NCBI GenBank assembly: GCA_043804515.1
Contig: JAZDIZ010000024.1
Coordinates: 1 to 61,631, forward strand
Reading direction: 5' to 3'
DNA: 61,631 nt
Source: Pseudomonadota bacterium
GTDB taxonomy: Bacteria; Bdellovibrionota_G; JALEGL01; DATDPG01
Shown: in pieces, positions 16,028 through 61,631 of the stretch
Numbering within the stretch: the first letter of the stretch is position 1
Layout: each line of letters begins with the position of its first letter
Notes under the pieces: generated by a model
What the model was told of the DNA's origin: nothing
The model's input: the letters and a program-made list of their open reading frames with translations, nothing else
Databases searched by the model: none
Program-made: the position numbers and the translations under genes

Positions 16028-16086
16028 TACATCCTGTCCCTTTCCCTGAGGATCGATGGTAAAAGAGGGTCGATAGGAGAGTCGGG

Positions 16087-29531: not shown

Positions 29532-30895
29532 GCCTGCTGCGACCGCTTTTGTATGTCGATGACGACATTGAAAACCTTTCCACGTTGAAAAGGGTCCTGC
29601 GGGGCCAGTATGAGGTGACCACGGCCGTCACGGCCTCCGAAGCCCTCGCCCGGATGGAGAGGGACTTTTTCCCGGTGGCCGTCGCGGACCAGCGGATGCC
29701 CAAAATGACCGGCGTGGAGTTTCTAAAGGAGGTCCGCCGGAAATATCCGGAGTGCGTGGGCCTGCTTTTGACGGCATACGCCGACATGGACGCGCTCGTG
29801 GACGGCGTCAACGCCAACGTCATCTACCGGTATCTCACCAAGCCGTGGAACGAGACGGATCTTCTCTCGGCCCTCCACCAGGCCTATGAGCATTACGATC
29901 TTAGGAGGGAGAACCGGAAACTCCTGGAGGAACTCAAGAAAGCCAACGCCTACTTCCGCCAGGAAATCGACGAGGCGTTCGATTTTTCCGCATTGGCGGG
30001 GGCCGACCAAGGCCTCAAGCAAGTCGCGGCGCTTGTGGCCAAGGTGGCGCCCACGGATTCGGCCGTCTTGATCCGGGGTGAAAGCGGCGTCGGGAAGGAG
30101 CTGGTGGCGAGAGCGATTCATCAGATGAGCTCTAGGAAGGAAAAACCTTTTGTGCGCGTGAATTGCGGCGCCTTGGCTGAGGGCCTGCTGGAAAGCGAGC
30201 TGTTCGGTCACGAGAAGGGCGCGTTTACGGGCGCGGAGGGACGGAGGATCGGGAGGTTCGAGTTCGCCGAGGGAGGGACGATCTTCCTGGACGAAGTGGG
30301 GGATCTCTCGCCGAAGCTGCAGGTGAACCTCCTGCGCGTATTGCAGGAAAAGGAGTTCGAGCGGGTGGGTGGAAACGAAACGATCCGCGTGGATGTCCGC
30401 GTGATCGCGGCCACGCACCGCCATTTGGAGGAGCTTACGAAGGCGGAAAAATTCCGGCAGGATCTCTTTTTCCGGCTGAACGTTTTTCCCGTCACGGTCC
30501 CGCCGCTCCGGGAACGCATCGGGGATTTGGCCGTTCTGGTCCCCAGGCTTCTGGAAAAGGCGGCCAAGCAAACCCGTCTCGCGCCCAAGACGGTCTCCAA
30601 GCCGGGGGTGGACAAGCTCAAAGGATACGACTGGCCCGGGAATATCCGGGAACTGGAGAATGTCGTTCAGCGGGCGCTGATTCTCTCGACCGGCTCGGAG
30701 ATCGGACCCGATGACCTGATTCTGGGCCCGGGCGTGGACGACACGGTTGTTCCGGCCGTTGAAGCCAAGGAGCTGACGCGGGAGCAACTCGTTGAAACGA
30801 TTCAGGCCTGCGGCGGGAACAAGCTGGAGGCTGCGCGCAAACTGGGAATCAAGCGTCCCACGCTTTACTACCACCTGAAGCGCTTCGGGCTTTAG
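29528..30895 (+). CDS. sigma54-dependent response regulator (REC-AAA+-HTH)
   Basis: VAVADQRMPKMTG (receiver), GESGVGKE, GAFTGA, ESELFGHEKGAFTGA, and a C-terminal AARKLGIKRPTLYYHLK. There is a 4-nt overlap with the kinase gene. Confidence 0.93.
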   Translation: MSLLRPLLYVDDDIENLSTLKRVLRGQYEVTTAVTASEALARMERDFFPVAVADQRMPKMTGVEFLKEVRRKYPECVGLLLTAYADMDALVDGVNANVIYRYLTKPWNETDLLSALHQAYEHYDLRRENRKLLEELKKANAYFRQEIDEAFDFSALAGADQGLKQVAALVAKVAPTDSAVLIRGESGVGKELVARAIHQMSSRKEKPFVRVNCGALAEGLLESELFGHEKGAFTGAEGRRIGRFEFAEGGTIFLDEVGDLSPKLQVNLLRVLQEKEFERVGGNETIRVDVRVIAATHRHLEELTKAEKFRQDLFFRLNVFPVTVPPLRERIGDLAVLVPRLLEKAAKQTRLAPKTVSKPGVDKLKGYDWPGNIRELENVVQRALILSTGSEIGPDDLILGPGVDDTVVPAVEAKELTREQLVETIQACGGNKLEAARKLGIKRPTLYYHLKRFGL

Positions 30896-30927
30896 CGCGG
30901 GACGTCCACGAAACGTCATGAGTCGGG

Positions 30928-31051
30928 GGCGGGCTGGCCCGTTGCCTGCGCTCCGTGGCTCGGATCGCATCACGGGGGACACCCACTGATGGGTGTCCCC
31001 ACCCCGGCGATCCTGCGCTGAACCTTCGCTTCGGCACCGGCCCAGTCCGCC
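30928..31051 (+). repeat. structured extragenic element, copy C
   Basis: GGCGGGCTGGCC..TGCCTGCGCTCCGTGGCTCGGATCGCATCAC-GGGGGACACCC-ACTGAT-GGGTGTCCCC..GGCGATCCTGCGC..GGCCCAGTCCGCC. Begins 33 nt after the stop of the activator gene. Confidence 0.85.
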
Positions 31052-31093
31052 GACGATTCGGGGCAGGTTCATGGGAAGACCTGACACAACTCC

Positions 31094-31110
31094 TGACACG
31101 TCAGGTGTCG
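31094..31110. promoter_or_regulatory. palindrome TGACAC-GTCAG-GTGTCG (UAS candidate), with an extra TGACAC half-site at 31082
   Basis: Read directly from the sequence; paralogous to 32731-32747. Confidence 0.55.
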
Positions 31111-31148
31111 GAAAACGAGGTTCTTCTCTAATAGGGAAGAAGATAGGA

Positions 31149-31164
31149 TGGCATGGGTGGTGCA
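31149..31164 (+). promoter_or_regulatory. sigma54 -24/-12 promoter candidate, TGGCAT-GGGTG-GTGCA
   Basis: The GG-N10-GC spacing is exact and the GG lies 48 nt from the palindrome centre. An alternative register gives GG at 31156 with TTGC at 31166. Confidence 0.55.
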
Positions 31165-31176
31165 GTTGCGGGGGGC

Positions 31177-31641
31177 ATGACAACGCACATAAATAATATG
31201 ATAGCCGGATGCCTGGTCGCGCTGGCTCTAATTCCCGATCTCTGCCGAGCGGGCGAGGAGGTGCCCCTTAAGGAGAAATCGGTGGCCATAGCCACGCTCC
31301 TCGGCCTCGATCCGATCCCTGCCGACGCGCTTTTCTATGCGGGAAGACCCGCTCAGGCCATGGCGAATTTGGTAGTGGGTTTAGCTGGGGTCGGGATGAT
31401 CGCGGGTGCCTTAAGCGTTGGACGCACGACGGATTACAACATTACAACAAAACTCAGTGTCGCCGCGGGAGGCGTTGGGGTTTACTTGATTACGCTGATC
31501 TGGGACCTGGCCGGAGGGGTCTCGGCCGTGCGCGCCGACAATGAAAAGGCCGCTCAATCCGCATTGCCTCACCAACACGTGCGTCCGACGCTGGCCATCG
31601 GGCCCAACGGCGGGTTCGGCGGCGTGGAAGTCAGGTTCTGA
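31177..31641 (+). CDS. small secreted/membrane protein, paralog 1 of an unrecognised family
   Basis: Signal peptide ends CRA|GE. Motifs are LDPIPADALFYAGRP and LIWDLAGG, with Gly-rich hydrophobic segments and a terminal GGVEVRF. The start is ATG 31177 or 31198; the track ATG at 31153 lies inside the promoter. Confidence 0.7.
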   Translation: MTTHINNMIAGCLVALALIPDLCRAGEEVPLKEKSVAIATLLGLDPIPADALFYAGRPAQAMANLVVGLAGVGMIAGALSVGRTTDYNITTKLSVAAGGVGVYLITLIWDLAGGVSAVRADNEKAAQSALPHQHVRPTLAIGPNGGFGGVEVRF

Positions 31642-45534: not shown

Positions 45535-46968
45535 TTGTGGGTCAGGGGTTGTAGCGGGGTCTTGGCGTCTGCTCTTGTTCTTGTGCAGCAGCCGGCCGTA
45601 GCTGCGGAAAAAATCGAGTTCGTAAGATTTCCGGACACTTTTAAATGGTGCGTAGCCACATCGGGCCACCAGATCGAAGGAAACAACGTCAACAGCGACT
45701 GGTGGCGTTGGGAACATTCGAAGGGAAAGATCATCAACGGAGAGATGTCGGGTTGGGCCACGGACCATTGGAACCGGGTCGAGGAGGACGCGCAGCTGAT
45801 TTCGGACCTGAATGTCGGCTACTACCGCATGTCCGTCGAATGGTCCCGTTTGGAACCGAGGCCCGGTGTGTTTTCGAACAAGGCCTTGGAACACTACCGC
45901 CACGAACTCAAGGAGCTGTTGCAGCGCGGGATCCAGCCGATGGTTACGCTGAATCATTTCACGCTTCCGATTTGGGTCGCGGACCGGGGCGGCTGGGAAT
46001 GGGACGGGATGCCGGAAGCGTTCGCACGATACGCGGAGTTCGTCTACCGAGGCCTCGGACACGATGTGCAGGACTGGATCACGATTAACGAACCCATGGT
46101 CGTCGCAGCCTTCGGGTACATCGGCGGCACGTTTCCCCCGGGCAAAACGAACGACGGCGCTGCCGCAGTGAGGGCAGTCGAGAAGATGCTTCGTTCCCAT
46201 GCCCTGGCGTATCACCTCCTGCACCGTCTGGCGGCCATGGAGAAACGGGCTATTCGCGTGGGCGTGGCCCATCACTTCAGAATCTTCGACCCGAAACGGC
46301 CCCTTCCGGCGGATTGGCTGATGAGCTGGGTGATCAGCGGCGCGTTCAATTGGGCATTTCCGGATGCGTTGAAAACCGGGACGCTAAGGCTTCTGATCCC
46401 GCAGGTCGTGTTGAAGTCCTTCGAGGGACTCAAGGGAACGCAGGATTTTATCGGCGTGAATTACTACACCCGGAACCGAGTGGACTTCTCGTCGCTTAAG
46501 CACACGGAGGACTTTCAACTGGTCGGCGAAGGGCACGCCACGACGGATGTGGGCTGGGAGATCTATCCTGAGGGGATCTATCGGATCCTCAAGTCGGTGG
46601 CGAAGCGCTATCGAGGCCTGCCGATCCTCGTTACGGAGAACGGCCTGGCCGACGGCGCCGACATTCGAAGGCTGGAGTTCCTCAAAGACCACCTCTTTCA
46701 GCTCTCCCGAGCCGTCCGGGAAGGTGTGCCGCTCGAGGGGTATTGCTATTGGTCGCTGCTCGATAACTTCGAATGGACTGAGGGGTTCGAGCCGCGCTTC
46801 GGCCTCTACGAAGTGGATTACCGGACGTTTGAAAGGATCCCGCGTCTGAGCGCCCGGTTTTTCGCACATGTGGCGCGCACGGGCCACTTCTGGTACCCGA
46901 ATCAATCCGAAATTCAGCTGGCTTCGAACCGCTCAAGCTCGGTCCCATCCTTCAACGCTCTGCCGTAA
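45535..46968 (+). CDS. glycoside hydrolase family 1 (beta-glucosidase-type), secreted
   Basis: TLNHFTLPIW, ITINEP (acid/base Glu), VTENG (nucleophile Glu), and YCYWSLLDNFEW. The TTG start has AGGAGGGGG upstream. Confidence 0.9.
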   Translation: MWVRGCSGVLASALVLVQQPAVAAEKIEFVRFPDTFKWCVATSGHQIEGNNVNSDWWRWEHSKGKIINGEMSGWATDHWNRVEEDAQLISDLNVGYYRMSVEWSRLEPRPGVFSNKALEHYRHELKELLQRGIQPMVTLNHFTLPIWVADRGGWEWDGMPEAFARYAEFVYRGLGHDVQDWITINEPMVVAAFGYIGGTFPPGKTNDGAAAVRAVEKMLRSHALAYHLLHRLAAMEKRAIRVGVAHHFRIFDPKRPLPADWLMSWVISGAFNWAFPDALKTGTLRLLIPQVVLKSFEGLKGTQDFIGVNYYTRNRVDFSSLKHTEDFQLVGEGHATTDVGWEIYPEGIYRILKSVAKRYRGLPILVTENGLADGADIRRLEFLKDHLFQLSRAVREGVPLEGYCYWSLLDNFEWTEGFEPRFGLYEVDYRTFERIPRLSARFFAHVARTGHFWYPNQSEIQLASNRSSSVPSFNALP

Positions 46969-47032
46969 GCCGTCCGCGTGACACAGTTTCTTGACTAATC
47001 CGAGGCCGTACTCTTTAACGTCGGGCACTATA

Positions 47033-47425
47033 ATGCACATAACCCCCCCGAAACTTAAGGTAGTCGAAGAGTTCAAATCCTTTCTCTTGAAACACCAGGT
47101 GGTGGGGTTGGCGGTCGGTGTCGTGATCGGCGCCGCCGTCGGCAAGGTGGTGACCGCCCTGGTAGGCGACATCATCATGCCGGTCGTCGGCCTGCTGACG
47201 CCGTCCGGTGAGTGGAGGGCGGTGAAGCTCGGGATTTTCGGCGTCGGCGACCTGCTCGGCAACATCCTGGATTTTACGATCGTGGCCTTTGTGGTCTTCA
47301 TGATCATCAAGCAGTTCATCAAGGAGGCGCCGCCGGCACCTTCCAAAACATGCCCGGCCTGCAAAGAGTCGATCCATCCCGAAGCGACGCGATGCAAGTT
47401 CTGCACGGCCGAGGTGGGTAAATGA
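47033..47425 (+). CDS. mscL: large-conductance mechanosensitive channel with a C-terminal CxxC...CxxC extension
   Basis: EEFKSFLLKHQVVGLAVGVVIGAAVGKVVTALVGDIIMP and FIVAFVVFMIIK are typical MscL segments. The tail is CPACKESIHPEATRCKFC. Confidence 0.9.
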   Translation: MHITPPKLKVVEEFKSFLLKHQVVGLAVGVVIGAAVGKVVTALVGDIIMPVVGLLTPSGEWRAVKLGIFGVGDLLGNILDFTIVAFVVFMIIKQFIKEAPPAPSKTCPACKESIHPEATRCKFCTAEVGK

Positions 47426-48222
47426 GATTCGCGCCATTCCTGCTCTTTCTCTCCCTCAGTTCGGCGGCCTGGGCGCAGGAGCCGACGCCTGCGACACAAC
47501 CCGCCCCCAACGCCGCTCCGGCATCCGCTCCAGTCGAGGCGCCCAAACCTCCGGTTGGTGAGTGGAAGGCGAGTGTGGGCGCCAGCGCCTTGATGAACAC
47601 GGGAAACTCGGAAAACACGACGTTCGGAGGAAACGGCCTGGCGAGTTACAAGTTTGAGAGGAACAAACTGGAAAGCACGGCCATAGGGGCGTACGGCCGC
47701 GCCAAGAGCCCCGCAGGCGTGAAAACGACTAACACGAAGAACTGGAAGATCCAGGAACGGTATGACCGGTACATCCTGGATCCTCTTTCGATCTTCGCCT
47801 TCGGGCACCTGGGGCAGGACAGACCGAGCGGTATCGATTGGAGATACGGCGGCGCGACCGGTCTTTCGCACGAAGCGTACAAAGTGGATCCGCACTTCTT
47901 CAAGTACGAACTCGGCTTCGACTACACACGCGAGCTGCGCACCCCACCGCCGGACGTGAATCGATATTCGGCCCGGATCTTTCTGGGTTACAAGTACAAG
48001 CTCTCGGATTGGGCTGCGTTCGGCGAGAGTCTGGAGAACCTCGTCAACGTCAAACACGGGAAAGCGTATCGGCTCGACGCTTTGTCGACCCTAACGATGA
48101 AGCTGACGACGAAGGTGGCCTTCCAGTTCGGCTTCGATGTCCGCTTCGACAACGCGCCGCCCGTGGGCAAGAAGAAAACGGACACCAGTACCCAGGCGGG
48201 CCTGGTCATCACACTCCTTTAG
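47422..48222 (+). CDS. DUF481 (YdiY-like) outer membrane protein
   Basis: Signal peptide and NTGNSENTTFGG...YKFERNKLE. There is an ATGA overlap with mscL. Confidence 0.8.
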   Translation: MRFAPFLLFLSLSSAAWAQEPTPATQPAPNAAPASAPVEAPKPPVGEWKASVGASALMNTGNSENTTFGGNGLASYKFERNKLESTAIGAYGRAKSPAGVKTTNTKNWKIQERYDRYILDPLSIFAFGHLGQDRPSGIDWRYGGATGLSHEAYKVDPHFFKYELGFDYTRELRTPPPDVNRYSARIFLGYKYKLSDWAAFGESLENLVNVKHGKAYRLDALSTLTMKLTTKVAFQFGFDVRFDNAPPVGKKKTDTSTQAGLVITLL

Positions 48223-50439: not shown

Positions 50440-51105
50440 CTATTTGGCTGACGTGAGACGACTGTGGCGCCACCAGGCGGCGAGCACCTCTTTAAACAGC
50501 GGTAGGGCGGAGACAAAAACAATGACGAGAACGGTTGCCTCGAAGTTTCTCTTGATGAACGGGACGTTCCCCAGGAGATAACCGGCCCCCGTCATGGACA
50601 GGACCCAACCGACTCCGCCGAATACGTTGTACGAGAGGAACTTCATGTACGTCATGTCGGCCATTCCGGCCACGAAAGGCGCGAACGTCCGGATGATCGG
50701 TATGAACCGGGCCAGGATGATGGTCTTTCCCCCGTGCCTTTCATAAAAGTCGTGCGTCTTGCGGAGGTGGGATTTTTTGAAAAAGAGCGAGTCCTCCCGG
50801 GTGAAGACCCTCGGCCCGGCCTTCTTGCCCAGGAAATAGCCTACGCCGTCTCCCACGATCGCGGCGACGGAAAGAAGGACGAACAAAAGCGGAAAACTCA
50901 GGATGTCCTTGCTGGATACAAACCCGGCGACGAACAGGAGCGAGTCTCCGGGGAAGAAAAAACCGATCAGAAGCCCGGTCTCGGCGAACACAACGCCGAA
51001 GAGAAACGGATAAGCCAACCATCCCCAGGTCATCAGCACCTGCTCCAGATAGTTAGGGTTCAAAAGCTGGGCGAAAAAGCCGAGAACGGCTTGGAGCGTC
51101 TCCAT
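50440..51105 (-). CDS. DedA-family membrane protein
   Basis: VFAETGLLIGFFFPGDSLLFVAGF and the ARFIPIIRTFAPFVAG motif. The start is placed at ATG 51105. Confidence 0.85.
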   Translation of the reverse strand: METLQAVLGFFAQLLNPNYLEQVLMTWGWLAYPFLFGVVFAETGLLIGFFFPGDSLLFVAGFVSSKDILSFPLLFVLLSVAAIVGDGVGYFLGKKAGPRVFTREDSLFFKKSHLRKTHDFYERHGGKTIILARFIPIIRTFAPFVAGMADMTYMKFLSYNVFGGVGWVLSMTGAGYLLGNVPFIKRNFEATVLVIVFVSALPLFKEVLAAWWRHSRLTSAK

Positions 51106-51460
51106 GGAAGGTGCAAGACAATACACGACTCGAGGCCGGCGCGCAGCAAACGAGGAGAAACCGGGGTAGTAGGATGCCCTTGACGCGGATTGGTAAAGGA
51201 GCGAGAAATGGGTCATTCAAACGGGGGTGAGTCCAATGGGCAGAAAAGTCCTTCGTGGAATTCCTGAGGCCGATCGGAGGGAGATCGCTCACGGAATCCA
51301 CGTCGTAGGTGGACAGGTGCACTCTTTGGTCGTGCAGGCGGCGTTGGGCCAGGTCACGGTTCTTGAAGAGGAACCGTCGGAACCGGGCACGCCCGCCGAG
51401 AAATCGCAACAGGCGTCAGAATCCTGACGCCGGGCGGGTTTCCCGCCCATCGAAATTTTC

Positions 51461-52117
51461 TCAGTTTACCAGCCTGGCAAAATCGGGGACTAGGTCTTTG
51501 AGGCCGTTGATGATGAATTGAATCGAGATGGCCGCCAGAAGAAGCCCCATGAGCCGGTTCATGACGCGCACGCCGGACGCTCCGACCAACCTTTGCAGAA
51601 TCGATGAGTTCACCAGGATGAAGTACGTCGCCAGGCTGATCACCAGGATGGAGACGATTACATACGCATCCTGAGCGAAGGTCTTGGAGCGGGTCATCAG
51701 GACGATCACGGTCGTGATGGCGCCGGGGCCCGACAGGAGCGGAATGGCGAGAGGGATGATCGAAATGTCGTGCTTTTCCGCCGCGTCTTTCTGCTCTTCA
51801 GGAAGCGTGCGGCTCCGGACGTTCTGACCCTTGAGCATGTTGAGGGAGACGCCGAAGACCAGGATCCCTCCGGCGATCCGGAACGCGGGAATCGAGATCC
51901 CCATCACATGGAAGACCCATTGTCCCGTAACCGCGAAAAAAATCAGAACCAGCGCGCACGCCAGGCTGGCGCGCCGGGCGATTGATCTTACGTCATGGGG
52001 AGGCGTCGTGATCGTGTGTCCCAGGAACATCCCCGTGGCCCCCAAGGGGTTCACGATCGTGAACAACGACACGAGCGTGACGGCGGCGAAGTCGGTAGTG
52101 ATTCCGAGGAAGTTCAC
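51461..52117 (-). CDS. MarC-family (UPF0056) integral membrane protein
   Basis: FTIVNPLGATGMFL N-terminal motif, 6 TM helices, 218 aa. Confidence 0.85.
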   Translation of the reverse strand: MNFLGITTDFAAVTLVSLFTIVNPLGATGMFLGHTITTPPHDVRSIARRASLACALVLIFFAVTGQWVFHVMGISIPAFRIAGGILVFGVSLNMLKGQNVRSRTLPEEQKDAAEKHDISIIPLAIPLLSGPGAITTVIVLMTRSKTFAQDAYVIVSILVISLATYFILVNSSILQRLVGASGVRVMNRLMGLLLAAISIQFIINGLKDLVPDFARLVN

Positions 52118-52139
52118 GTGAATCGGGGTGGGGATTCCG

Positions 52140-52478
52140 CTATTTCTTGAACGGCGCCGGGTCGAAATGCTGCCGCTTATCTTTCTTGTCTTTCCAGGCG
52201 TCGGCGTCGGGTAGGGCGGCCTTTTTCTCGGCGATATTGGGCCATTCCTTGGCGTATTTGGCGTTCAATTCGACGTATTCTTTCCACTGATCCGGAAGCT
52301 CATCCAGAGGGAAGATCGCCTGCGTCGGGCACACGGGCTCGCAGGCTCCGCAGTCGATGCAGTCGTCCGGATGGATTGCGAGGAAGTTCACGCCCTCGTA
52401 AAAACAGTTCACGGGGCACACTTCCACGCAATCCGTGTATTTGCATTTCACACATGGGTCGGCAACCACGTAGGCCAT
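52140..52478 (-). CDS. fdxA: 7Fe ferredoxin (3Fe-4S plus 4Fe-4S, Azotobacter type)
   Basis: [18 protein letters not shown] and [12 protein letters not shown]. Confidence 0.92.
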
Positions 52479-52559: not shown

Positions 52560-53189
52560 TCAATGTTTGGCCTGGAGGCCCATGAGGCCGAAACGCAGGA
52601 GTTCCTCCACGATCGCCTGCCGGTTGGGCTCGCCGCCTCGACGGACGACGAGGTGTTGGTAGAGCACTTCCTTGATGCTTCCCAGCACGGCCATCGCGAT
52701 CAGCTCCTCGTTCACTTCCCGGGTCAGGCCCCATTTGGCGCCGTTGTGCAGCGCCCGGGCGATGTTCTCGTGGAGGAACAGATAAAGCTTGGTGAGCTTC
52801 TGATCCACCGTCTCGTTGAACGCGATCGCCTCGCGCAAGAGGATCACGGTGAGGTCCTGCTTCCCGAAGAGGAGATCCACGACGCGCGTGAGATTGTCGC
52901 GAAGCTGGTCTACCGGGTTTCCGTGTTCGAGGCGCACGGGCCGGATGCACGCCATCAACTCCAGGATGAACGCGTCGACGAGTTCATAAAAGAGAGCGTC
53001 GATTCCGTCGAAATAGAGATAAAACGTGCCCCGCGAGATCCCCGCAGCCTCCAGAACGTCGGCCACGCTCGTGGCCTGATATCCTCGGCGGCTGATGACC
53101 TCCTGTGCCGCCTGAAGGATCTCCCCCCGGCGCGTGGTTCGCTGGCGGTTGGCCCGAAGGCTCCGCCCGTCGATTGCAAGTTCGTTCAT
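52560..53189 (-). CDS. TetR/AcrR-family transcriptional regulator (last gene of the lipid operon)
   Basis: ILQAAQEVISRRGYQATSVADVLEAAGISRGTFYLYF HTH motif. There is a 4-nt overlap with the acyltransferase gene. Confidence 0.9.
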   Translation of the reverse strand: MNELAIDGRSLRANRQRTTRRGEILQAAQEVISRRGYQATSVADVLEAAGISRGTFYLYFDGIDALFYELVDAFILELMACIRPVRLEHGNPVDQLRDNLTRVVDLLFGKQDLTVILLREAIAFNETVDQKLTKLYLFLHENIARALHNGAKWGLTREVNEELIAMAVLGSIKEVLYQHLVVRRGGEPNRQAIVEELLRFGLMGLQAKH

Positions 53190-53941
53190 GTGTTCACTGC
53201 CTCTCTCTGACTGGATACTTCCTCGGGCGACTCGACGTAGGACATGACCATCTCCTGCAATTTCCGCGTCAGGTCGGAAATCCCGGAATCACTCAATCCG
53301 GCCGTCTCGATCTGGGGCCCGAAGTGGACGGAAACGGGGCCCGGCCGGAACAGATAGGAGCCTCTTTGATTGACGGCGTACATCCCCCGGATCCCCGCCG
53401 GAACGACCGGATAACCGGCGTCCCGTGCCATGAGGATCGAGCCCTTGTGGAACCGGTGGACGCGGCCGTCCGGCGTGCGGTGGCCTTCGGGAAATACCAG
53501 AATGGACATGTTCTCACGCCGCCGCTGGAGAGCGTGTTCCGTGATCCTCTCGAGGTTCCGTCCGAAGTCCTTCTTGCGGATGGGGATCCCCCGGGACAGT
53601 TTCATGAGCCACCCGTAGAACGGGATCCAGAACTGCCAGGCGTTCATCAGGCCGCAAAACGCGTGCGGGATCGATGCGGACGTCGTGTGTCCGTCCAAAA
53701 GGTTGGTGTGGTTGAAACAAAACACGCTCAGCCGCTCGGGATCGAAGGCCGGGTCGAACGTCACCCGAAAGCGCCCCAACGTGACGAACAAGATGATGTG
53801 TCTAAACCCGGCCGCGGGTACGCGGCTGTGGATCTGCGGATACGTGAAAAAGAGCCGCAGCGCCATCGTGGCGAGGGCGAGCACGGCCATATATGCGAAC
53901 GCAAAAATCCAGAAGAAAATATTAAAAAGGACAACCATCAT
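53186..53941 (-). CDS. lysophospholipid/1-acylglycerol-3-phosphate acyltransferase family (PlsC-like)
   Basis: HX4D motif is NHTNLLD, followed by FPEGHRTPDG. There is an N-terminal TM helix and a 1-nt overlap (TGATG) with the kinase gene. Confidence 0.88.
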   Translation of the reverse strand: MMVVLFNIFFWIFAFAYMAVLALATMALRLFFTYPQIHSRVPAAGFRHIILFVTLGRFRVTFDPAFDPERLSVFCFNHTNLLDGHTTSASIPHAFCGLMNAWQFWIPFYGWLMKLSRGIPIRKKDFGRNLERITEHALQRRRENMSILVFPEGHRTPDGRVHRFHKGSILMARDAGYPVVPAGIRGMYAVNQRGSYLFRPGPVSVHFGPQIETAGLSDSGISDLTRKLQEMVMSYVESPEEVSSQREAVNT

Positions 53942-54849
53942 CAGGCCCTCGCGTCGAACGCCCCCGGAAGAACCTCAAGTCGCTTCGGAACCACGCGGAG
54001 CGATTCGCCGTCCACCATGACGTCGATTTCCCGGTCCATGTCGAATTCGATCGTTCGCACCTTGAGCGCATGGATCTGGGGAAGCCCGACGTGTGTTCCC
54101 TTGAAAATCGTAGGGAACGCCTTGAGGAGCGAGAATCGCCCCATCCGATCCACCAGGATCAGGTCGGCAAGGCCGTCGGACGTGTCGGCCGCCGGCGCCA
54201 TCATCATCTTCCCTCCGGTGAACCGGCTGTTGTTGATGGAGAGAAACGTGAGAGGCCTTCGGATCTCCTCGGCGCCGTCGATTTTCATCGGGAAGGCGCG
54301 GGGATGGAGGCCGGCCAGCTCCTTGAAAACGCCCAGAACGTAACCGAACTGGCCGAACGCTTGAAACCGGCGGTTCCGGGTGGCCGCCACGTCGGCCACG
54401 AATCCCATGCTCAAGAGGTTGATGTAATAAAACTCCCCGTCCCGATGTGTGAGGCGGATCACGTCGCAAGATCGCCGGCGCCCGTCCAGGATGGCTTTCA
54501 TCGAATACTCGGCCGTGTCGTGAGAGAAATCACGAAGGAAGGAATTCCCCGTCCCGGTAGGAAGGAGGCCCAGAGTTGGGCGCGCGGCCCCTTTTTCCGC
54601 CGCGGCGGGGAAAAGGCCGTTGATCACCTCGAAGCCGGTGCCGTCACCACCGATGGCCAGAAAGTCCCTCCGCCCCGCAGCGTAGGCCTCCCGGGTGATC
54701 CTCATGGCGTCCCCCGGGCGGCTTGTTTCAGAGACTTCGATGGCGATTCCCGAAGCCCGGAGACGGTCCAACATCGCCGGCGCCATGTCCTTGGAACGCC
54801 CGCCTCCCGCGGCGGGATTGAAGACGGCGAAGAGGGGAGAAGAACCCAT
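53941..54849 (-). CDS. diacylglycerol-kinase-family lipid kinase (YegS/BmrU-like)
   Basis: FNPAAGGGRS, AIGGDGTGFEVINGL, LPTGTGNSF. Confidence 0.88.
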   Translation of the reverse strand: MGSSPLFAVFNPAAGGGRSKDMAPAMLDRLRASGIAIEVSETSRPGDAMRITREAYAAGRRDFLAIGGDGTGFEVINGLFPAAAEKGAARPTLGLLPTGTGNSFLRDFSHDTAEYSMKAILDGRRRSCDVIRLTHRDGEFYYINLLSMGFVADVAATRNRRFQAFGQFGYVLGVFKELAGLHPRAFPMKIDGAEEIRRPLTFLSINNSRFTGGKMMMAPAADTSDGLADLILVDRMGRFSLLKAFPTIFKGTHVGLPQIHALKVRTIEFDMDREIDVMVDGESLRVVPKRLEVLPGAFDARA

Positions 54850-54850
54850 A

Positions 54851-56548
54851 TCAGATGATCCTCACGGCATCCGAGCGCGGGAGCGCTTGAGCGAGTTCTC
54901 GGGCCAGGATGCCGCGCTTGATCTTGAGCGAGGCGGTTCTGGGAAATTCCCGGGGCCAGACGACATATCCGGTCACGCGTTTGAAATCGGCCAATTGCCG
55001 GTTCCGCTCTCTCACATGCGCCACGAGGGCATCGCTCGTGACGCCCTCGCGCGGACGGACCACGACGACCAGTTTGTCCCCGGTGAATCCCGCCTCGGGC
55101 CAAATGTAGTTCGCGGCGAAAACGGATTGCTCGTACGTGCCCTCCAAGCCGTCGAAAACGGTCTCGATGTCTTCGGGATAGATGTTCTTCCCCCCGTCGG
55201 TGACGATCATGTTCTTGGCTCTTCCGACCAGGCGGACATGGCCGGAATCGTCGACGAACCCCAGGTCCCCCGTCCTCAGCCAACCGTCCACGATCGTCTC
55301 GTCGGTGAGCTCGGGCTCGTCGAGATATCCTTTCATCACCGAAGGGCCCCGGACCCAGATTTCACCGATCCCCTCCCCATTCTTCTCCCGGATGTCGAGT
55401 TCAATCCCGGTGACGGGTTTTCCGACCGTATCGCTCCGGAACGGGCGGAGATCGTTCACCGTCAGAGCGGTCCCGGCCTCGGTGAGGCCGTAGCCGATGA
55501 CGACCGGAATCCCGATCCGGTAGAAAAAATCAGCCGTGGTCGGGTCCACAAACGCGCCGCCGGCGATGATGATTCTGAGCTTTCCGCCGAAGGGCTCGTG
55601 GAGAGGTTTTAAAAGCATTCTGGAGAGGCGATGTCTCGGCCTCCTTCGGGTGGCGAAGGCGTTCACGCCGATCAGGGCGTCGAGGGCTCTTCGTTTGAGT
55701 GGAGAGAGGAGGGCGATGTTTTCACGGATCTTCTTCTCCACGGCTTTCAGGATCATCGGCACCATCGCCATGTGCGTGATCCCGTATTTCTTCATCGTCG
55801 CGGCCAGAAACTCAGGACGGAGCGTGCGTTGATGCACAACGGTGCCGCCGCAGAGCATCGGGATGATGAAGCCGCACATGAAATCGATGGCGTGGTTGGT
55901 CGGCAGGATCGAGAAGAAACGCTCTCCCGGCTTCATCGGGTACATGCTTCCGAGTTGCTCCGCCTGCGATAGATAGTTCGCGTGCGTCAGCATGCACCCT
56001 TTGGGGGTTCCGCCCGTACCCGAGGAATAAACGATGCAGGCCACGTCTTCCCTGGCGGCCGCGCGGTATTCGAAACGATCCCCCTTCACGGTTTCCCAAC
56101 GGGAAGCGCCGTTCAGCCAGGCATCCGGGGGCGCCTCGGTTACGATCACGTGCATGGGAGGCATGTCGGCCCCGAGACGGTTGAAGATGGGCCATTCGGT
56201 GATGAGGACGCTCGGCTTGGCGTGGCGGAGAAGGGCCGCCTGCTCTCCGGGCGTCAGCTTGTAATCGAGGGGTACGAGCGTCAGGCCGGACCAGAACGCG
56301 GCGGCGGCCGAAAACACCCATTTGGACTGGTTGGACATCAGGATCGCGCACCGGTCGTTGGGCTTGCAGCCGATGGATTGCAGCCATGAGGCGAAACGCT
56401 CTGTCTCCCGCTGGAACTCCGCGAAGGTCCATCGCCCGTTCTCACGATCCCGATCCGCCTCGATGAATGCCACGTGGTCCCGGGACCGGGATGTGGCGTC
56501 CCGAAGGGCGTCGCCGATCGAGGAAAATCGGGAGAGATCCAGCTTCAT
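54851..56548 (-). CDS. AMP-dependent acyl ligase (fatty acyl-AMP/CoA ligase), coupled to the ACP gene
   Basis: YSSGTGGTPKG, GYGLTEAG, TGDLGFVD, plus a KIKR C-terminal Lys motif. There is an ATGA overlap with the ACP gene. Confidence 0.9.
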   Translation of the reverse strand: MKLDLSRFSSIGDALRDATSRSRDHVAFIEADRDRENGRWTFAEFQRETERFASWLQSIGCKPNDRCAILMSNQSKWVFSAAAAFWSGLTLVPLDYKLTPGEQAALLRHAKPSVLITEWPIFNRLGADMPPMHVIVTEAPPDAWLNGASRWETVKGDRFEYRAAAREDVACIVYSSGTGGTPKGCMLTHANYLSQAEQLGSMYPMKPGERFFSILPTNHAIDFMCGFIIPMLCGGTVVHQRTLRPEFLAATMKKYGITHMAMVPMILKAVEKKIRENIALLSPLKRRALDALIGVNAFATRRRPRHRLSRMLLKPLHEPFGGKLRIIIAGGAFVDPTTADFFYRIGIPVVIGYGLTEAGTALTVNDLRPFRSDTVGKPVTGIELDIREKNGEGIGEIWVRGPSVMKGYLDEPELTDETIVDGWLRTGDLGFVDDSGHVRLVGRAKNMIVTDGGKNIYPEDIETVFDGLEGTYEQSVFAANYIWPEAGFTGDKLVVVVRPREGVTSDALVAHVRERNRQLADFKRVTGYVVWPREFPRTASLKIKRGILARELAQALPRSDAVRII

Positions 56549-56778
56549 CGCCTCACCTCGATGATTCGCGCCAAGGCGGCGAATGTTTTCACCCCCTGCA
56601 GCTCGTAGTCGGGGATCTCGACGTGAAATTCCGTCTCCAGCTCGGTCAGGAGGCTGAGCGCCGCCATGCTGTCGATCTTGAGCGTCTCGAAAATGTCGGC
56701 TTCGGGGCGGATCCGGGCCGGGTCCGTCTTGAATCGTCGAGCGGTTATCGCAATGAGCCTGTCCAGCGTGTCACTCAC
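56545..56778 (-). CDS. acyl carrier protein (discrete)
   Basis: 77 aa, with LKIDSMAALSLLTELETEF as the phosphopantetheine Ser context (DSM in place of the usual DSL). Confidence 0.85.
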   Translation of the reverse strand: MSDTLDRLIAITARRFKTDPARIRPEADIFETLKIDSMAALSLLTELETEFHVEIPDYELQGVKTFAALARIIEVRR

Positions 56779-56786
56779 ATTTTCTC

Positions 56787-57563
56787 CTAAGGCAGGTAAG
56801 GGTGGGCGTCCGTGCTGTCCACGAACTTTTGAAGTGCCGCGAGCACGACCGGGCGTCCGAAGAGCCGGATCGCCAGCTCCTTCTCGCGCGCCAATTCCTC
56901 ATGCGGAAGACGCTTGATGAACGCCTTCGCCTCCGCCACCGTGACGGAGTCGAACTTGGCCACTTGGCGGGCCATCGTTCGGGCCACGGCAACGGCCTCG
57001 CCGGGGGCCACGACCTGGCTCACAAGTCCCAGTTCCGCGGCCTTGCGGGCGTTGATGCTGCGTCCCGTAAGAAGGAGGTCGCGCACGACACAGTTTCCCA
57101 GCTCCCGTTTCAGGCGCGGGATACCCCCGAAACAGGGTAGGATTCCCAGACGCAGCTCGGGAAAACAGAAACGGGCCGTCTGGTCGGCCACGAGGAGATC
57201 ACAGGTGAGGGCCAGCTCGAAGCCGCCGCCGAAACAGACGCCGTGAATGGCCCCGACGGTGGGAAGCGGAAGAAGATCGAGCCGATCCATCACGGTATGG
57301 ACCCGGTCCAGAAACTCCTTTAAGAGCGGGGAGTGCTCGGCCTGCGGACGGGAGAGCATTCCGCCGTGCAGCTCACGAAGATCGGCCCCCGCGGAGAACC
57401 CGTTCTTTTGGCGGCTGTAGATGACCAGTGCCCTGCCTTTCTTCGGGTCGATCTCGTCGAGCGCCCGCTCCAGGGCTCGAAGCATCTCGGTTCCGATCTC
57501 ATTGCACGGCTCCCGGAAGAGCGCCAACTCGTATACCCGGTCGCTGAGTGTGAGCTCGATCAT
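56787..57563 (-). CDS. enoyl-CoA hydratase/isomerase (crotonase) family protein
   Basis: FSAGADL, GAIHGVCFGGGFELALTCD. Confidence 0.88.
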   Translation of the reverse strand: MIELTLSDRVYELALFREPCNEIGTEMLRALERALDEIDPKKGRALVIYSRQKNGFSAGADLRELHGGMLSRPQAEHSPLLKEFLDRVHTVMDRLDLLPLPTVGAIHGVCFGGGFELALTCDLLVADQTARFCFPELRLGILPCFGGIPRLKRELGNCVVRDLLLTGRSINARKAAELGLVSQVVAPGEAVAVARTMARQVAKFDSVTVAEAKAFIKRLPHEELAREKELAIRLFGRPVVLAALQKFVDSTDAHPYLP

Positions 57564-59209
57564 GATTGTCCTTCGCTTTCTCCGTAGATTCCGTTGATGA
57601 ACCGTTTCATCCGGGTCTCGATGGCGCTCCGGCGGATCTTCTGATTGGCCGTGAGAAGGCCGTTCTCCACGGTGAACCTCTCATCGAGCCGGCGGTACTT
57701 GCGGATCTTTTTGTAGTGAGGAAGCGCGTCATTCACCTTGCCCAGGGCACGCACGATCTCTTCGTCTTCCGCGGAGCCGGTGATGAGAACGGCCAGATAC
57801 GGTTTTCCGTGTCCTACGACCACGGCATGCTCGATCCCGGGGCAGTTCTCGAGGATCTGCTGCTCGATCGGCTCGGGAGCCACGTTGTGAGCGGAGGCCG
57901 GAACGATGATATTCTTCAGCCGACCGATGATCTTGAGGTTTCCGTCGGATGCCGCCTCTGCCAGGTCCCCGGTGTACAGCCAGCCGTCCCTAAGAATCGC
58001 CCGCGTGGCCTCGGGTTTCCTCCAATAACCCGGGAAGAGGTTGGGGCCGCGGCAGGCCAGCTCCCCTTCGTCCGTGATCCGGACGTCGCACCCGTCGATC
58101 GGTTTACCCACGAATCCGGTCCGAACGGATTCCTTCCGGTCCATCGTGACGATCCCCGTTGTTTCCGTGAGGCCGTACACCTGAAGGACCTTGAGCCCGA
58201 TCATTTTGCACCAACGCTGGGTCTCCTCGCTGAGAGCCGCGGAACCGCAGATGATGAATTCGAGATTCGGGCCCACCTTTCGGCGGATCTTTCGAAAGAC
58301 GACGAGTTTGCTGATTCCAAGCAGCAAAAGATCCACCGGCCCGGCTCGGCGGCGGGATACCCGGTCGCCGGCTTCCGCGCCGACGCGATACAGGACCGCA
58401 GGAAGTCCGCCGGCTGCGTGGAGCTTTTCGGAGACGGCCGAACGAATCCGGTCCAGGAAGGCCGGAACCGTCAGAAAATATTGGGGGGAGGCCGTCGCCA
58501 GCTCTTCGGGGAGGTTCTTAAGATCGGTGGAGATCATTAGGGGATTTCCGCGATAGAGCTGCGTCCAGAGCATCAGTCGGGAGCCTGCGAAACAGAACGG
58601 AAGAAAGTGAAAGATCCTGTCCTCTGCGCTTTGCCGTCCCGTGGTTTCGGCCAGGCGGGCCGCAGTTCTTTGGATCATGAAATCGATGTTGGCCCGGGTC
58701 AGAACGACGCCCTTCGGCTCGCCGCTGGTTCCCGAAGTGTAAATAATCGTGACCGGATCCTCCGGCCGAACGGAATGCGGGTCCTCAGGAGAGCCCGAAG
58801 CTCCGTGAACAACGTCAGTCAGGAAGAGAACGGGGCAGGAAGGGTTCCATGCCGTCCGAAGATTCGTGAGAACCGCCGGATCGGAACAGATCAGAAGCTT
58901 CGGTTCGCAATCGCGCAGCATCTGGGCCAGCTCCTTGGCCTCCTGTCGATGGTACAGCGGCACGCAGACGGCGCCGTGAGCTAGAACGGCCAGATCGGCG
59001 GCCACCCAATGGATCGAATTGGGTCCGAGCAGGGCCACGCGGTCTCCCGGTCCGACTCCCTGATTCCTAAGCTGCGCGCGCGCGGATGAGACCAGACGCA
59101 GAACCTCGTTTCCGGAGCACGGACAAAGTTCTTTTCCCCGCACTTCGAAAAGCACCGGGAATTCCGCCCGACGTTGAAGACTCCGGACTATGGTCTCGAT
59201 AAAACTCAC
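57560..59209 (-). CDS. AMP-dependent long-chain acyl-CoA synthetase-like ligase
   Basis: YTSGTSGEPKGV, VYGLTETTG, TGDLAE. The start is placed at GTG 59209 (a GTGA overlap with the upstream stop), because the 5' part of the 754-aa ORF is Arg/Gly/Pro-rich read-through of the neighbouring gene. Confidence 0.85.
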   Translation of the reverse strand: MSFIETIVRSLQRRAEFPVLFEVRGKELCPCSGNEVLRLVSSARAQLRNQGVGPGDRVALLGPNSIHWVAADLAVLAHGAVCVPLYHRQEAKELAQMLRDCEPKLLICSDPAVLTNLRTAWNPSCPVLFLTDVVHGASGSPEDPHSVRPEDPVTIIYTSGTSGEPKGVVLTRANIDFMIQRTAARLAETTGRQSAEDRIFHFLPFCFAGSRLMLWTQLYRGNPLMISTDLKNLPEELATASPQYFLTVPAFLDRIRSAVSEKLHAAGGLPAVLYRVGAEAGDRVSRRRAGPVDLLLLGISKLVVFRKIRRKVGPNLEFIICGSAALSEETQRWCKMIGLKVLQVYGLTETTGIVTMDRKESVRTGFVGKPIDGCDVRITDEGELACRGPNLFPGYWRKPEATRAILRDGWLYTGDLAEAASDGNLKIIGRLKNIIVPASAHNVAPEPIEQQILENCPGIEHAVVVGHGKPYLAVLITGSAEDEEIVRALGKVNDALPHYKKIRKYRRLDERFTVENGLLTANQKIRRSAIETRMKRFINGIYGESEGQS

Positions 59210-60639
59210 GCGTATGTCTCCAGGAGTCTTTTCACGGTGGCGGGAAGCGGCGGCAGGTGGTCCTCCCATGTCCTCTTGAGATTCGGCGGTGTGAACTCCG
59301 GGTAGACCCGCCGCACCTCGTCCACGAAATCGATTCCCATCTGTCCCATCAGCCGGAGCTGTCCGGGCACCGCGCATCCGATCTGATCCCGGATCGCGTC
59401 GGTCTCTCTCGGCATCCGCCGGAGCAAAGCCAGGAGGCGGTCCCCGAGGTCGGGGTCGTCCACCTCCAGGAAGAAGTCGGCGTGGCCCCGGTCGTTCATG
59501 AGATTTCGGATCCGCTCGTCCATCGTGACGCCGACGGAGGGCACCTGGGCCGGCATGGAACAGACGATGGCGTGGAAACGGGAGCTGACCATCATGGACC
59601 CGTTCCGAAGGATGCTCACCAGGTCGTACATGTTGTGCTCGTCGCTGATAAAGAGGGGCGGTTTGGGATCCAGCCGCTCGGCCAGACGCTCGCAGGCGCG
59701 CCGGTCCAGGCGTTCCATCCCCACCAGAACCGGGAGGACATCCTCTTCGTTTCGGAAGGCCGTGACGGCCGTCGCCAAAGCGTCGAGATATCGGTTGTAC
59801 TTGCGGGCGGCTTCCCCGGACCAATCGTGGAAGTAAATCGACTTGTAATGCTGCTCGCCGTACCTCCCCGCCAGGCGGTTCGCCGCAAACTTATAGAGGC
59901 TCGGCCGGACCGGCCACCAGAAGGGGTTGATCGGGCACACGATCAAAACCTTCTTTTTCCCGTCCCACCCGGCGTTCCGCAAGAGCCCCGCGCCACGCTC
60001 GGGGGGCGAAGGTTCGAACGTCCACGCGGTGTCCGTTCCCCCGCGGGTCCGGATCCCCATATCCTCCAAGACTTTCCGGGAAGGCTCGTTCCGGCAGATG
60101 ACCAGGGCGTTCTTGCAGTGCTTGGCCACGAACGATTTCAGGCTCGGCGACATCGCGCCGGCCTCGGCGCCGTATCCGACACACAGTTTGTCCTCGGCGG
60201 CGGCCATGCCGAGCGCGCCGGCCATCATCGTCGTGAGGGCCTCAGCGAACTTGGATTTGAACATGGATCCCTCGCAAGCCACGACGCCGTGATGCTTCGG
60301 GCACTCCCGGTACAGAAAACGCGGAAATACCTGGGGCATCAGGATCTGCTGGACGCCCTCGAAGTAGTCCGCCGAAAGCTCCGGATCCAGAGTCATGATC
60401 GTGAGCGCGAGGTTCCCGTCCCCCAGGATGTGCCGGAACTGGCGGATCATTTCCTCCACGCGCACGTCGGCCCCGGTGTTTCTCGTCCCCGTGTAGCACG
60501 CCAACAGGAGTTTCAGGGGTTTCCCCGGCTCCCAGCGGTCGCCCCGCAAACCCACCGCGTCTTTGAGGGACGCCGTTTGAATGAAAGACCCCATGTACAT
60601 CCGGAGGGCCCGATCGGGACTCAATGCATCGGTGATCAT
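59206..60639 (-). CDS. polysaccharide pyruvyl-transferase-family (PF04230-like) protein
   Basis: The C-terminal half has [11 protein letters not shown], typical of this family. The protein is 477 aa. The start is ATG 60639, in an ATGA overlap with the upstream gene. Confidence 0.7.
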
Positions 60640-61631
60640 GCGACCTTGGCCTCCTTCTTCCCGACCCATGGTTTGTAGGGATAGGTGAACCCGTGCTCCC
60701 TGGCGAAACGGAGCAAAGGGAGGGCGTACGCCGAAAACGGCTTCGGGGCCTCCCCAAGCTCGGCGCACACGCGCGCGTTGTCGAAAACCGTGTTGAACGC
60801 GAGGTACGGAAGAAACACTTGCATGGCCGAAGCCGGCAGGGAGATCCCCCAACTCCGGGGCGTGGCCGCCAGGATGTTCGTGAAAAACGAAAACGGCCCG
60901 AGGAGGCGGGGGGTGACGAAATGCCACATTCTAAAGCCGGCTTCGTTCATGGCTTTAAGGATCTCGGCGTAGCTCAGAGCCGCAGTGCCGGAACTGAGAT
61001 GGTAGATGTGATGGCGGGGCGCGTCGCTTTGGTGGATCCGGATGATCGCGCGGGCGACGTAATCGGCCGGAACGATGTCGAGCTTCCAATCGCTGTGGAA
61101 CGGAAGGATCGGGAGCTGCGCCAGAAAGGCGAATGCGCGGACCATGTCGAATTGAGTGGTTTGTGGAAAACGGCTGTCTCCCAGCACGATGCTGGGGCGG
61201 AACACGAGGCGGGCCACGTCGGGCAAGAATTCCGCCACCATGTGCTCGGCAAGCTTCTTCGTGCGGGCGTAAGGATCGTAGTCGCTCCGGTCCCATTCGA
61301 TCGCCCGGTCCTCCGTGACCACCTCGTTCGAGCGCTTTCCCGCCACGGCCACTGTGGAAATGTCGCTGAAGCGGCGCAGGCCGTGCTGCTCGTGCGCCGC
61401 CCGAGCCAGCTTGATGACCTGGAGAGTGCCCCGGAGGTTCACGTTCATGCAGGTCTTCTCGGACTTTCGGTTGAGGGATGCCGCGCAGTGGATGACCGAG
61501 TCCATGGACCGGATCAAACGATCCCGGGCGGAGGAATCCATGCCCAGGTTCTCCTGTGTCAGATCGCCCAGATAGATGTCGACGCGGTCGCGCATGAGGG
61601 CATGGAACGTTTCGGCGTCCATGTGGAGCTG
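60636..61631 (-). CDS. NAD-dependent thioester/fatty-acyl reductase-type SDR (NAD_binding_4, male-sterility-like), 5' end outside the window
   Basis: [16 protein letters not shown] and YARTK (YxxxK). The frame is open to the window edge and the GxxGxxG motif is not yet reached. Confidence 0.75.

Follow-up and report, generated by a model that had tools for sequence, protein, structure and literature searches.

The 61,631-nt contig JAZDIZ010000024.1 of a metagenome-assembled genome (MAG) labelled Pseudomonadota, referred to here in its full length as the window, carries at one end nine consecutive minus-strand open reading frames (ORFs). They span positions 52560-61631, and their junctions were read on the sequence itself. 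The second gene encodes a protein resembling pyruvyl transferases (the PyrT-like protein, hereafter PyrT), and it lies among genes for lipid and acyl enzymes. In the order of transcription, the genes are as follows:

60636-61631, minus strand: thioester-reductase-type short-chain dehydrogenase/reductase (TR), with no start codon, open at the contig end
59206-60639, minus strand: PyrT, PF04230 family, 477 amino acids (aa), with a PF04230 match and an ATGA overlap with TR
57560-59209, minus strand: ligase 1, an ACSL/FadD11-like AMP ligase of 549 aa, GTG start, GTGA overlap with PyrT
56787-57563, minus strand: crotonase-family enoyl-thioester hydratase (ECH), PF00378, ATGA overlap with ligase 1
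56545-56778, minus strand: free-standing acyl carrier protein (ACP), PF00550, GTG start, GGAG 8 nt upstream
54851-56548, minus strand: ligase 2, an AMP ligase, PF00501, ATGA overlap with the ACP stop
53941-54849, minus strand: YegS/Rv2252/BmrU-family lipid kinase (DAGK), TIGR00147, PF00781 plus PF19279
53186-53941, minus strand: PlsC/LPLAT-type acyltransferase (PlsC), PF01553, N-terminal hydrophobic segment
52560-53189, minus strand: TetR-family regulator, PF00440, ATGA overlap with the acyltransferase gene

The other three junctions are an 8-nt gap between the crotonase and ACP genes, a 1-nt gap between ligase 2 and the kinase, and a 1-nt overlap (TGATG) between the kinase and the acyltransferase. 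The original prediction, made from this sequence alone, described nine minus-strand genes joined by ATGA or GTGA overlaps and small gaps, and this description stands, with one 1-nt overlap plus one 1-nt gap. The operon in the window is real and tightly packed, and it is more than a product of chance because the same genes occur in the same order in 131 loci. It also runs past the window edge, as had been proposed: alignment to the full-length orthologue at locus L051 indicates that about 48 N-terminal residues of TR are cut off by the contig end, and relatives add two further genes upstream. Since the window is the entire MAG contig, the 5' end of the operon can be inferred only from these relatives. 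A terminator and promoter scan around the TetR end gave nothing above background, and Rfam and tRNA scans of the window gave no matches.

A species-level scan, with one genome per species and gene order mapped by tblastn, yielded 50 PyrT loci, almost all from Myxococcota and two from MAGs labelled Planctomycetota. Nearly all of the 50 show the gene order of the window. The cluster is carried by Nannocystis exedens DSM 71, N. punicea, N. pusilla, N. bainbridge, N. radixulma and Paraliomyxa miuraensis, and also by MAGs of Polyangiales, Nannocystaceae and Bradymonadia. The 131 loci, fetched at a PyrT identity of at least 50% and with their metagenome part drawn from the matches listed, share the recurring order HAD–FAR–TR–PyrT–ligase 1–ECH–ACP–ligase 2–DAGK–PlsC. 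The first gene in this order encodes a HAD-IB hydrolase (PF12710) of 220-245 aa, and the second a 565-610-aa reductase of the fatty acyl reductase (FAR) type, with NAD_binding_4 and Sterile domains. Among those of the 131 loci with enough flanking sequence, the expected position is occupied by TR, upstream of PyrT, in 93/106, by FAR in 79/94, by HAD in 67/80, by ligase 1 in 75/98, by ECH in 69/83, by ACP in 56/77, by ligase 2 in 50/64, by the kinase in 41/59 and by PlsC in 25/55. The neighbourhood of PyrT with reductase and ACP genes, whose conservation the original prediction had left to be examined, is thus conserved. Its nine-gene unit fares less evenly: the genes are conserved, but the conserved unit is larger at the upstream end, and TetR is only a variable accessory, found in the window and at L015, L029, L040, L041 and L069 (about six loci).

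The nearest relative, at 83% identity, is a 7.7-kb contig that begins at TR and reads TR–PyrT–ligase–ECH–ACP–ligase–(kinase). In metagenomes, 592 of the first 600 pattern matches listed encode relatives, giving at least 80 further loci, and about 7,800 sequence clusters at 90% identity match PyrT; a search of a plasmid collection gave no match. Soil and peat metagenomes hold a second clade, of about 53% identity and equidistant from all Myxococcota sequences, with the same gene order. In this clade HAD and FAR are fused into one protein of 797 aa (PF12710 + PF07993 + PF03015; L077 at 6484-8877, with equivalents at L080, L093 and L122), a fusion which ties the phosphatase functionally to fatty-alcohol formation, and the kinase is followed by a small ORF and then by VKOR and esterase genes. 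A subgroup of Nannocystaceae has an interrupted cluster (L030, at 5291-9825 and 11518-18800; L024, L032, L033 and L035), with about 5 kb between TR and PyrT, including a SIR2-like protein and ORFs without matches. A further stretch of about 7.5 kb, which encodes a solute-binding protein as well as a Ser/Thr kinase bearing TPR repeats, separates PyrT from ligase 1.

All nine family assignments of the original prediction hold, and the seven Pfam families it named are all matched above gathering score. TR matches PF07993 with an E value of 1.9e-33 and 116 bits, against 44 bits for the Epimerase family, and its top NCBIfam match is the thioester reductase model TIGR01746 (3e-27), below that model's cutoff (95.8 vs 213). 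Its YARTK is the catalytic YxxxK, it is 55% identical to residues 49-369 of the L051 orthologue, and the Rossmann N-terminus that is cut off in the window is present in full-length orthologues. These scores bear on the name that Pfam and NCBI give to PyrT relatives, 'polysaccharide pyruvyl transferase family protein', which would make the locus an operon for pyruvylation of a glycan or cell-envelope polysaccharide. The reductase does have secondary matches to sugar epimerase families, and grouping with such epimerases next to polysaccharide genes was the outcome that the original prediction had set against itself. The scores favour NAD_binding_4, however, every other gene encodes a lipid or acyl enzyme, and the annotated flanks of several relatives contain no glycosyltransferase, flippase, polymerase or sugar-nucleotide genes. 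Because the reductase is thioester-reductase-like and no polysaccharide genes lie in the annotated flanks, glycan pyruvylation is essentially excluded.

The other enzymes likewise keep the motifs of their families. Ligase 1 matches PF00501 (2e-66) and the AMP-binding_C_3 domain PF23562 (3e-9), with TSGTSGEPK and GWLYTGD motifs; ligase 2 (PF00501, 2.7e-74) is 30% identical to ligase 1 and is a probable acyl-ACP synthetase. In the crotonase (PF00378, 4e-38), GGGFE and PELRLG align to both catalytic Glu of M. tuberculosis EchA8 (3pzk), and the PDB relatives include 3-hydroxypropionyl-CoA dehydratase, which acts on an acryloyl thioester. The ACP (PF00550, 2.8e-11) has the DSM phosphopantetheine site, and the kinase passes the TIGR00147 cutoff (129.8 bits, cutoff 118.65), with GGDG at residue 67 and the PF00781 and YegS_C (PF19279) domains. 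The acyltransferase (PF01553, 8e-19) has HTNLLD (HX4D) at residue 78 and FPEG at residue 150; it misses the TIGR00530 cutoff (60.2 vs 103) and aligns to the acyltransferase part of Aas (NF006386, E 1e-12, below cutoff). The TetR protein (PF00440, TetR_N, 6e-15) is weakly similar to fatty-acid regulators (Bacillus-type FadR, 1e-11; FadR/FabR-type).

The resemblances of TetR to FadR or FabR and of PlsC to Aas, together with a kinase of generic YegS/DgkB type and hosts that are mostly Myxococcota and Bradymonadia, would suit an operon for lipid salvage or remodelling in a predatory or soil bacterium, under TetR/FadR-like control. The ligases, the hydratase, a kinase of di- or monoacylglycerol and Aas-like reacylation would then put exogenous fatty acids, alcohols and lysolipids back to use, with the reductases detoxifying aldehydes and PyrT incidental. 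Yet most relatives have no TetR, FAR and TR belong to reductive anabolism, and the core contains no acyl-CoA dehydrogenase, 3-hydroxyacyl-CoA dehydrogenase or thiolase, a thiolase lying upstream in three loci only. Moreover, PyrT is the best-conserved protein of the cluster, with 60-69% identity across Myxococcota, and stands in mid-position among coupled genes. Salvage is in our view quite improbable.

PyrT itself matches PF04230 with 1.1e-11 and 45.6 bits (cutoff 25.3), and 30 of 31 diverse members of its family also match PF04230. Its alignment to the CsaB model TIGR03609 spans that model from end to end (positions 2-295 of 301). The AlphaFold2 model (pLDDT 88.4) has a GT-B fold of two Rossmann-like domains, preceded by a helix at the N-terminus and followed at the C-terminus by a long helical extension. 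Full-length profiles of the family found no significant sequence match in the PDB (none at E≤1). A 62-column sub-profile of the C-terminal core matches Pvg1p of Schizosaccharomyces pombe (5ax7) weakly (E 0.025), aligning SSR354-F-H356-A with DRLHA. The two basic residues of this motif in Pvg1p, R337 and H339, correspond to R306 and H308 of CsaB, which were assigned to the binding of phosphoenolpyruvate (PEP) by mutagenesis of CsaB (PMC10435577). Among family sequences down to 25% identity, G51, R60, R183, D203, P243, H356 and D374 are invariant, and R354 (in ≥90% of sequences) and R376 are near-invariant. R183 and R376 also occur at the spacings of CsaB R148 and K328, a match of spacing only. 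Since the Arg-x-His motif (SRFHA in the window) of Pvg1p and CsaB is conserved, PyrT is likely to use PEP. It shares with CsaB of Paenibacillus alvei, Pvg1p and WcaK both PF04230 membership and this motif, but differs from them in being 100-150 aa longer and in its lipid/acyl rather than glycan gene context.

The family of PyrT is large: an exhaustive search of 50%-identity representatives found 845 proteins at E≤1e-3, and 209 at the stricter limit of E≤1e-30. Its members show which genes travel with it. Fusions among them include one that joins PyrT to a ligase-1-type AMP ligase (P0179) and another that joins the FAR Sterile domain to PyrT (P0138). A Planctomycetota MAG (L052) has only TR–PyrT–ligase-1-type–ECH followed by a 205-aa protein, all junctions being 4-nt overlaps; because these four genes occur alone there, TR–PyrT–ligase 1–ECH is a self-standing module and not a loose add-on. 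In a distant subfamily of about 415 aa (L057 at 9001-15628, L138 at 8001-14355 and L140 at 7278-13967), PyrT is always followed by one TR–ligase-1-type fusion protein; an ATC-hydrolase-like protein comes next, together with a GMC oxidoreductase, and a flavodoxin-like gene adjoins the module. The fusions, of 808-942 aa, have the reductase before the adenylating part (R-A order) and no carrier domain. Genes around the module, such as those for Ehb hydrogenase subunits and HTH_10, have an archaeal look, and the subfamily is probably archaeal. From the contexts of these distant members, an acid-activating ligase and a thioester reductase emerge as the constant partners of PyrT.

Some family members stand in other surroundings. 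An Actinobacteria MAG (L054/L055, 7566-12043) has two tandem PyrT-like paralogues with a divergent DAGK/YegS-type kinase adjoining, and as neighbours two Fe-ADH-family dehydrogenases, an amine-oxidase-like flavoprotein and a methyltransferase. In an Elusimicrobiota genome, a short-chain dehydrogenase/reductase gene lies two genes upstream of the PyrT family member. At L053 (10001-11557), a 518-aa member lies between a nonribosomal peptide synthetase/polyketide synthase (NRPS/PKS) assembly line, with MbtH, thioesterase and phosphopantetheinyl transferase genes, and a synthase resembling those of polyunsaturated fatty acids or polyketides, a natural-product-type context.

The closest known system is the elb operon of Myxococcus xanthus, in which elbA and elbE belong to the NAD-dependent epimerase family, elbB is HAD-like, elbC has no known function and elbD encodes a fusion of FAR, acyl-CoA synthetase, ACP and acyltransferase modules (PMC9131029). 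In annotation tables from two transcriptome studies of M. xanthus, ElbD (MXAN_1528) carries PF01553, PF03015, PF00501, PF07993 and PF00550, ElbB (MXAN_1530) is a HAD-IB protein (PF12710) and ElbC (MXAN_1529) belongs to DUF2088/PF09861 (PMC6791715, PMC9548883). The original prediction, which had set the operon beside ElbD, was right that ElbD fuses four modules (PF07993/PF03015, PF00501, PF00550 and PF01553) that are separate polypeptides in the window. Since the domains of MXAN_1528 and MXAN_1530 match the cluster families, the whole ElbB and ElbD enzyme set, of HAD-IB, FAR-type reductase, AMP ligase, ACP and PlsC-type acyltransferase, is present as separate genes. With FAR and an ElbB-family HAD-IB protein upstream, the link to Elb is stronger than that prediction could see; the ElbB partner family (PF12710) stands at the cluster head in relatives, while the window contig ends before it. 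Both systems also have 'epimerase-type' reductases of the short-chain dehydrogenase/reductase kind and mostly Myxococcota hosts, the window MAG being labelled Pseudomonadota. They differ in that the ElbD modules are one polypeptide, whereas in the window and the 131 loci FAR, ligase, ACP and acyltransferase each have a gene of their own and are ordered differently, and in that the gene tables of L051 and L052 have no DUF2088/LarA-like ElbC gene. We take PF09861 to be the LarA lactate-racemase N-terminal family, acting on 2-hydroxy acids; if so, the family of ElbC might be a sign that Elb, too, passes through a C3 hydroxy acid. We also considered whether ElbC might be the counterpart of PyrT, and rejected this on the DUF2088/PF09861 annotation of MXAN_1529.

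Beyond the Elb families, the cluster has the PF04230 protein and the crotonase, together with a second ligase and a YegS-type kinase, and some loci have TetR as well. The ACP gene is separated from FAR by TR–PyrT–ligase 1–ECH, and PlsC from ligase 2 by the kinase. The earlier claim that such extras are foreign to Elb holds in that the Elb operon has no PF04230, crotonase or DAGK gene, but a preprint on sponge symbionts, which does not mention a pyruvyl transferase, reports diacylglycerol kinases and glycerol-3-phosphate acyltransferases adjoining elbD/elbB homologues. We class the cluster as one for a lipid, related to Elb, whose core module is uncharacterised.

Likenesses to other systems are more partial. 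As in Aas of E. coli, an AMP ligase would load an ACP for a PlsC-type acyltransferase, ligase 2 overlapping the ACP gene, but here there are three separate genes and a dedicated ACP, and scores are far below the Aas cutoffs. With the eukaryote-like FAR/GNPAT/AGPS route (MXAN_1676-1674) the cluster shares a fatty-alcohol-forming FAR and an acyltransferase in one locus; in the cluster these two are unfused, and a gene for AGPS, the FAD-linked alkyl-dihydroxyacetone-phosphate synthase, is missing both from the operon in the window and from the gene tables for L051 and L052. Carboxylic acid reductases, of domain order adenylation–carrier–reductase (A-PCP-R), likewise combine an adenylating enzyme with a terminal NAD_binding_4 reductase, and both ligase and TR give partial matches to the model of these enzymes; in contrast to them, the fusions described above have the order R-A without a carrier, and in the window the ligase and TR are separate genes flanking PyrT. 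A sphingolipid cluster (Spt/ACP/ACP-synthetase/CerR/CerK) was also considered and rejected, as the cluster and its conserved flanks, in the loci annotated, have no pyridoxal-phosphate-dependent gene of the Spt/aminotransferase class.

With this in mind, one may propose a scheme in which the operon builds an alkyl (ether-type) glycerolipid-like membrane lipid in three blocks. MurA and EPSP synthase join PEP to an alcohol, giving an enol ether and phosphate, and in a MurB-type follow-up the enolpyruvyl group becomes a saturated C3 ether. These enzymes are unrelated to PyrT in fold and family, and the proposed likeness is mechanistic only. According to the scheme, FAR, with or fused to the HAD-IB phosphatase and seen in the relatives only, would turn an activated fatty acid into a fatty alcohol. 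In the second block, PyrT would move the enolpyruvyl group of PEP onto this alcohol by the chemistry that MurA carries out on the hydroxyl of a sugar, giving a 2-alkoxyacrylate; ligase 1 would convert its carboxylate into a thioester; the crotonase would add water at C3, giving a 3-hydroxy (O-alkylglyceroyl) thioester; and TR would reduce C1 to the aldehyde or alcohol, leaving an O-alkylglycerol-like diol. In the third block, the YegS-type kinase would phosphorylate the free primary hydroxyl and the PlsC-type enzyme would acylate the other, the donor being acyl-ACP made in Aas-like fashion by ligase 2 and the dedicated ACP. The end product would be a phosphatidic-acid analogue, and TetR would be the local regulator.

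Every conserved gene except HAD finds one use in this scheme, and several results argue for it. Among these are the tight coupling of the nine genes, their intact catalytic motifs and the order shared by the 131 loci. TR–PyrT–ligase 1–ECH would by itself be exactly the set needed to pass from an enolpyruvyl ether to a glyceryl ether, and these four genes stand alone in L052, are in part fused in other members, and include a conserved PEP site. The crotonase keeps both hydratase Glu and has a PDB relative that acts on an acryloyl thioester. The HAD-IB, FAR, ligase, ACP and acyltransferase set is that of ElbB and ElbD, from a genetically proven ether-lipid operon. The alignment of PlsC to the acyltransferase half of Aas, the overlap of ligase 2 with the ACP gene and the annotated flanks free of polysaccharide genes point the same way. 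We would nevertheless put the scheme as a whole at a probability of only about 0.35. We think it considerably more probable, in general terms, that the locus is an operon for lipid anabolism which is related to Elb and in which a PEP-dependent transferase takes part. The narrower proposition, that TR–PyrT–ligase–ECH forms an oxygen- and flavin-independent route to ether lipids in which the glycerol backbone is made de novo from PEP, appears to us rather doubtful.

The sequences show which genes are there, how they are ordered and coupled, how far they are conserved, and to which families and with which catalytic motifs they belong; all the substrates, PEP as donor, the succession of reactions and the product are what we infer. 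A number of observations weigh against the scheme. PyrT falls far short of the equivalog cutoffs for CsaB (49.7 vs 213) and WcaK (18.9 vs 399). Its top 50 Foldseek matches in the PDB are generic GT-B enzymes (TM about 0.45-0.5) and not Pvg1p, so that a pyruvyl transferase cannot be deduced from the fold alone. Ligase 1 is missing in 23/98 loci, among the Myxococcota nine loci inspected by eye have ECH directly after PyrT and no ligase 1, no PlsC was detected after the kinase in the soil/peat clade, and the distant subfamily carries a GMC oxidoreductase in place of the crotonase. HAD has no step in the scheme, and the pair of ligase 1 and TR could instead make the alcohol acceptor. The scheme also predicts a 2-O-alkyl (sn-2-type) lipid, whereas the known ether lipids of myxobacteria are 1-O-alkyl (PMC9131029).

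A further difficulty lies in the chemistry of the family, as the characterised PF04230 enzymes, all of them PEP-dependent, form ketals on sugar diols and not enol ethers on lipid alcohols (PMC10435577). If PyrT keeps to this chemistry, as its conserved PEP-binding motif would allow, the reductases and hydratase would make a lipid diol whose two hydroxyls it bridges with a pyruvate ketal, giving an anionic, carboxylate-bearing lipid or head group. The diol might be an alkane-1,3-diol derived from a 3-hydroxyacyl thioester, or a monoalkyl- or monoacylglycerol; sugar 4,6-ketals bridge a 1,3-diol, and ECH, TR and FAR together could provide one. A ketalised diol, however, has no hydroxyl left for the conserved kinase and acyltransferase, and a ligase and TR as the most constant partners of PyrT, even where ECH, FAR or ACP is absent, would go unexplained. 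We therefore think a ketal lipid unlikely.

The generic GT-B matches can also be taken to mean that PyrT does not use PEP at all and that the cluster follows an Elb-type route with the usual backbone of glycerol or dihydroxyacetone phosphate (DHAP). FAR would make the alcohol, while the acyltransferase, kinase, HAD and a short-chain dehydrogenase/reductase would handle DHAP and glycerol-3-phosphate intermediates in the manner of the eukaryote-like pathway, ligase 1 and ECH would only supply or trim acyl chains, and PyrT might, for example, perform the missing ether-forming step on acyl-DHAP or transfer some other group. This would agree with the HAD-IB, FAR, ligase, ACP and acyltransferase set common to the cluster and elb, with the diacylglycerol kinases and glycerol-3-phosphate acyltransferases reported beside elbD/elbB homologues, and with an ether-forming Elb enzyme that is as yet unidentified (PMC9131029). 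It leaves aside that the Arg-x-His of the PEP site is invariant or near-invariant in the family and that TR–PyrT–ligase–ECH occurs in L052 without FAR, acyltransferase, kinase or HAD; nor does it find a role for the crotonase. ElbC, moreover, is of another family than PyrT, DUF2088. Such a route seems to us improbable, and the PEP-based scheme remains the reading we prefer.

Immediately after TetR, the minus strand carries three more genes, at 50440-52478:

52140-52478, minus strand: 7Fe-type ferredoxin with a DUF3470 tail, 81 nt after TetR
51461-52117, minus strand: MarC-family membrane protein
50440-51216, minus strand: DedA/VTT-domain membrane protein

There is no terminator-like site between the operon and these genes, and in relatives with annotated downstream flanks they do not follow the cluster. 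Elsewhere, the contig encodes two histidine kinases, a PIF1-like helicase and a MacB/FtsX-type permease, and five of its ORFs (1761-3218, 8742-10166, 17668-19032, 29726-31183 and 46936-48057; 374-486 aa) are without any Pfam match.

In the literature searched, which leaves most subscription journals outside its coverage, no paper among those listed joins a pyruvyl or enolpyruvyl transferase with ether lipids, and a search on Nannocystis and the multi-enzyme cluster, with the same limit, likewise found nothing. The formation of alkyl ether bonds by aerobic bacteria is an open problem on which this cluster touches. AGPS contributes little in Myxococcus, Elb is known only genetically, and the steps from fatty acid to alkyl ether in Elb are stated to be unknown (PMC9131029); the PlsA/Ger route works only anaerobically. 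With the ElbB/ElbD enzyme set joined to a conserved module centred on a putative PEP transferase, the cluster gives a concrete chemical hypothesis for ether formation. The question is open to direct test in cultured strains that carry it and are amenable to genetics, such as N. exedens DSM 71, N. pusilla, N. punicea and P. miuraensis. Should the ether idea prove wrong, gene content and context still establish, as far as sequence can, a PF04230 clade in lipid/acyl rather than glycan metabolism, whose constant pairing with a thioester reductase and an acid-activating ligase reaches into the probably archaeal subfamily. If the scheme is true, bacteria would have, in addition to Elb, AGPS and PlsA/Ger, a fourth way of making ether lipids, for which sn-2-type ethers are predicted, and this PEP-based route would be widespread in Myxococcota and in the soil and peat clade.

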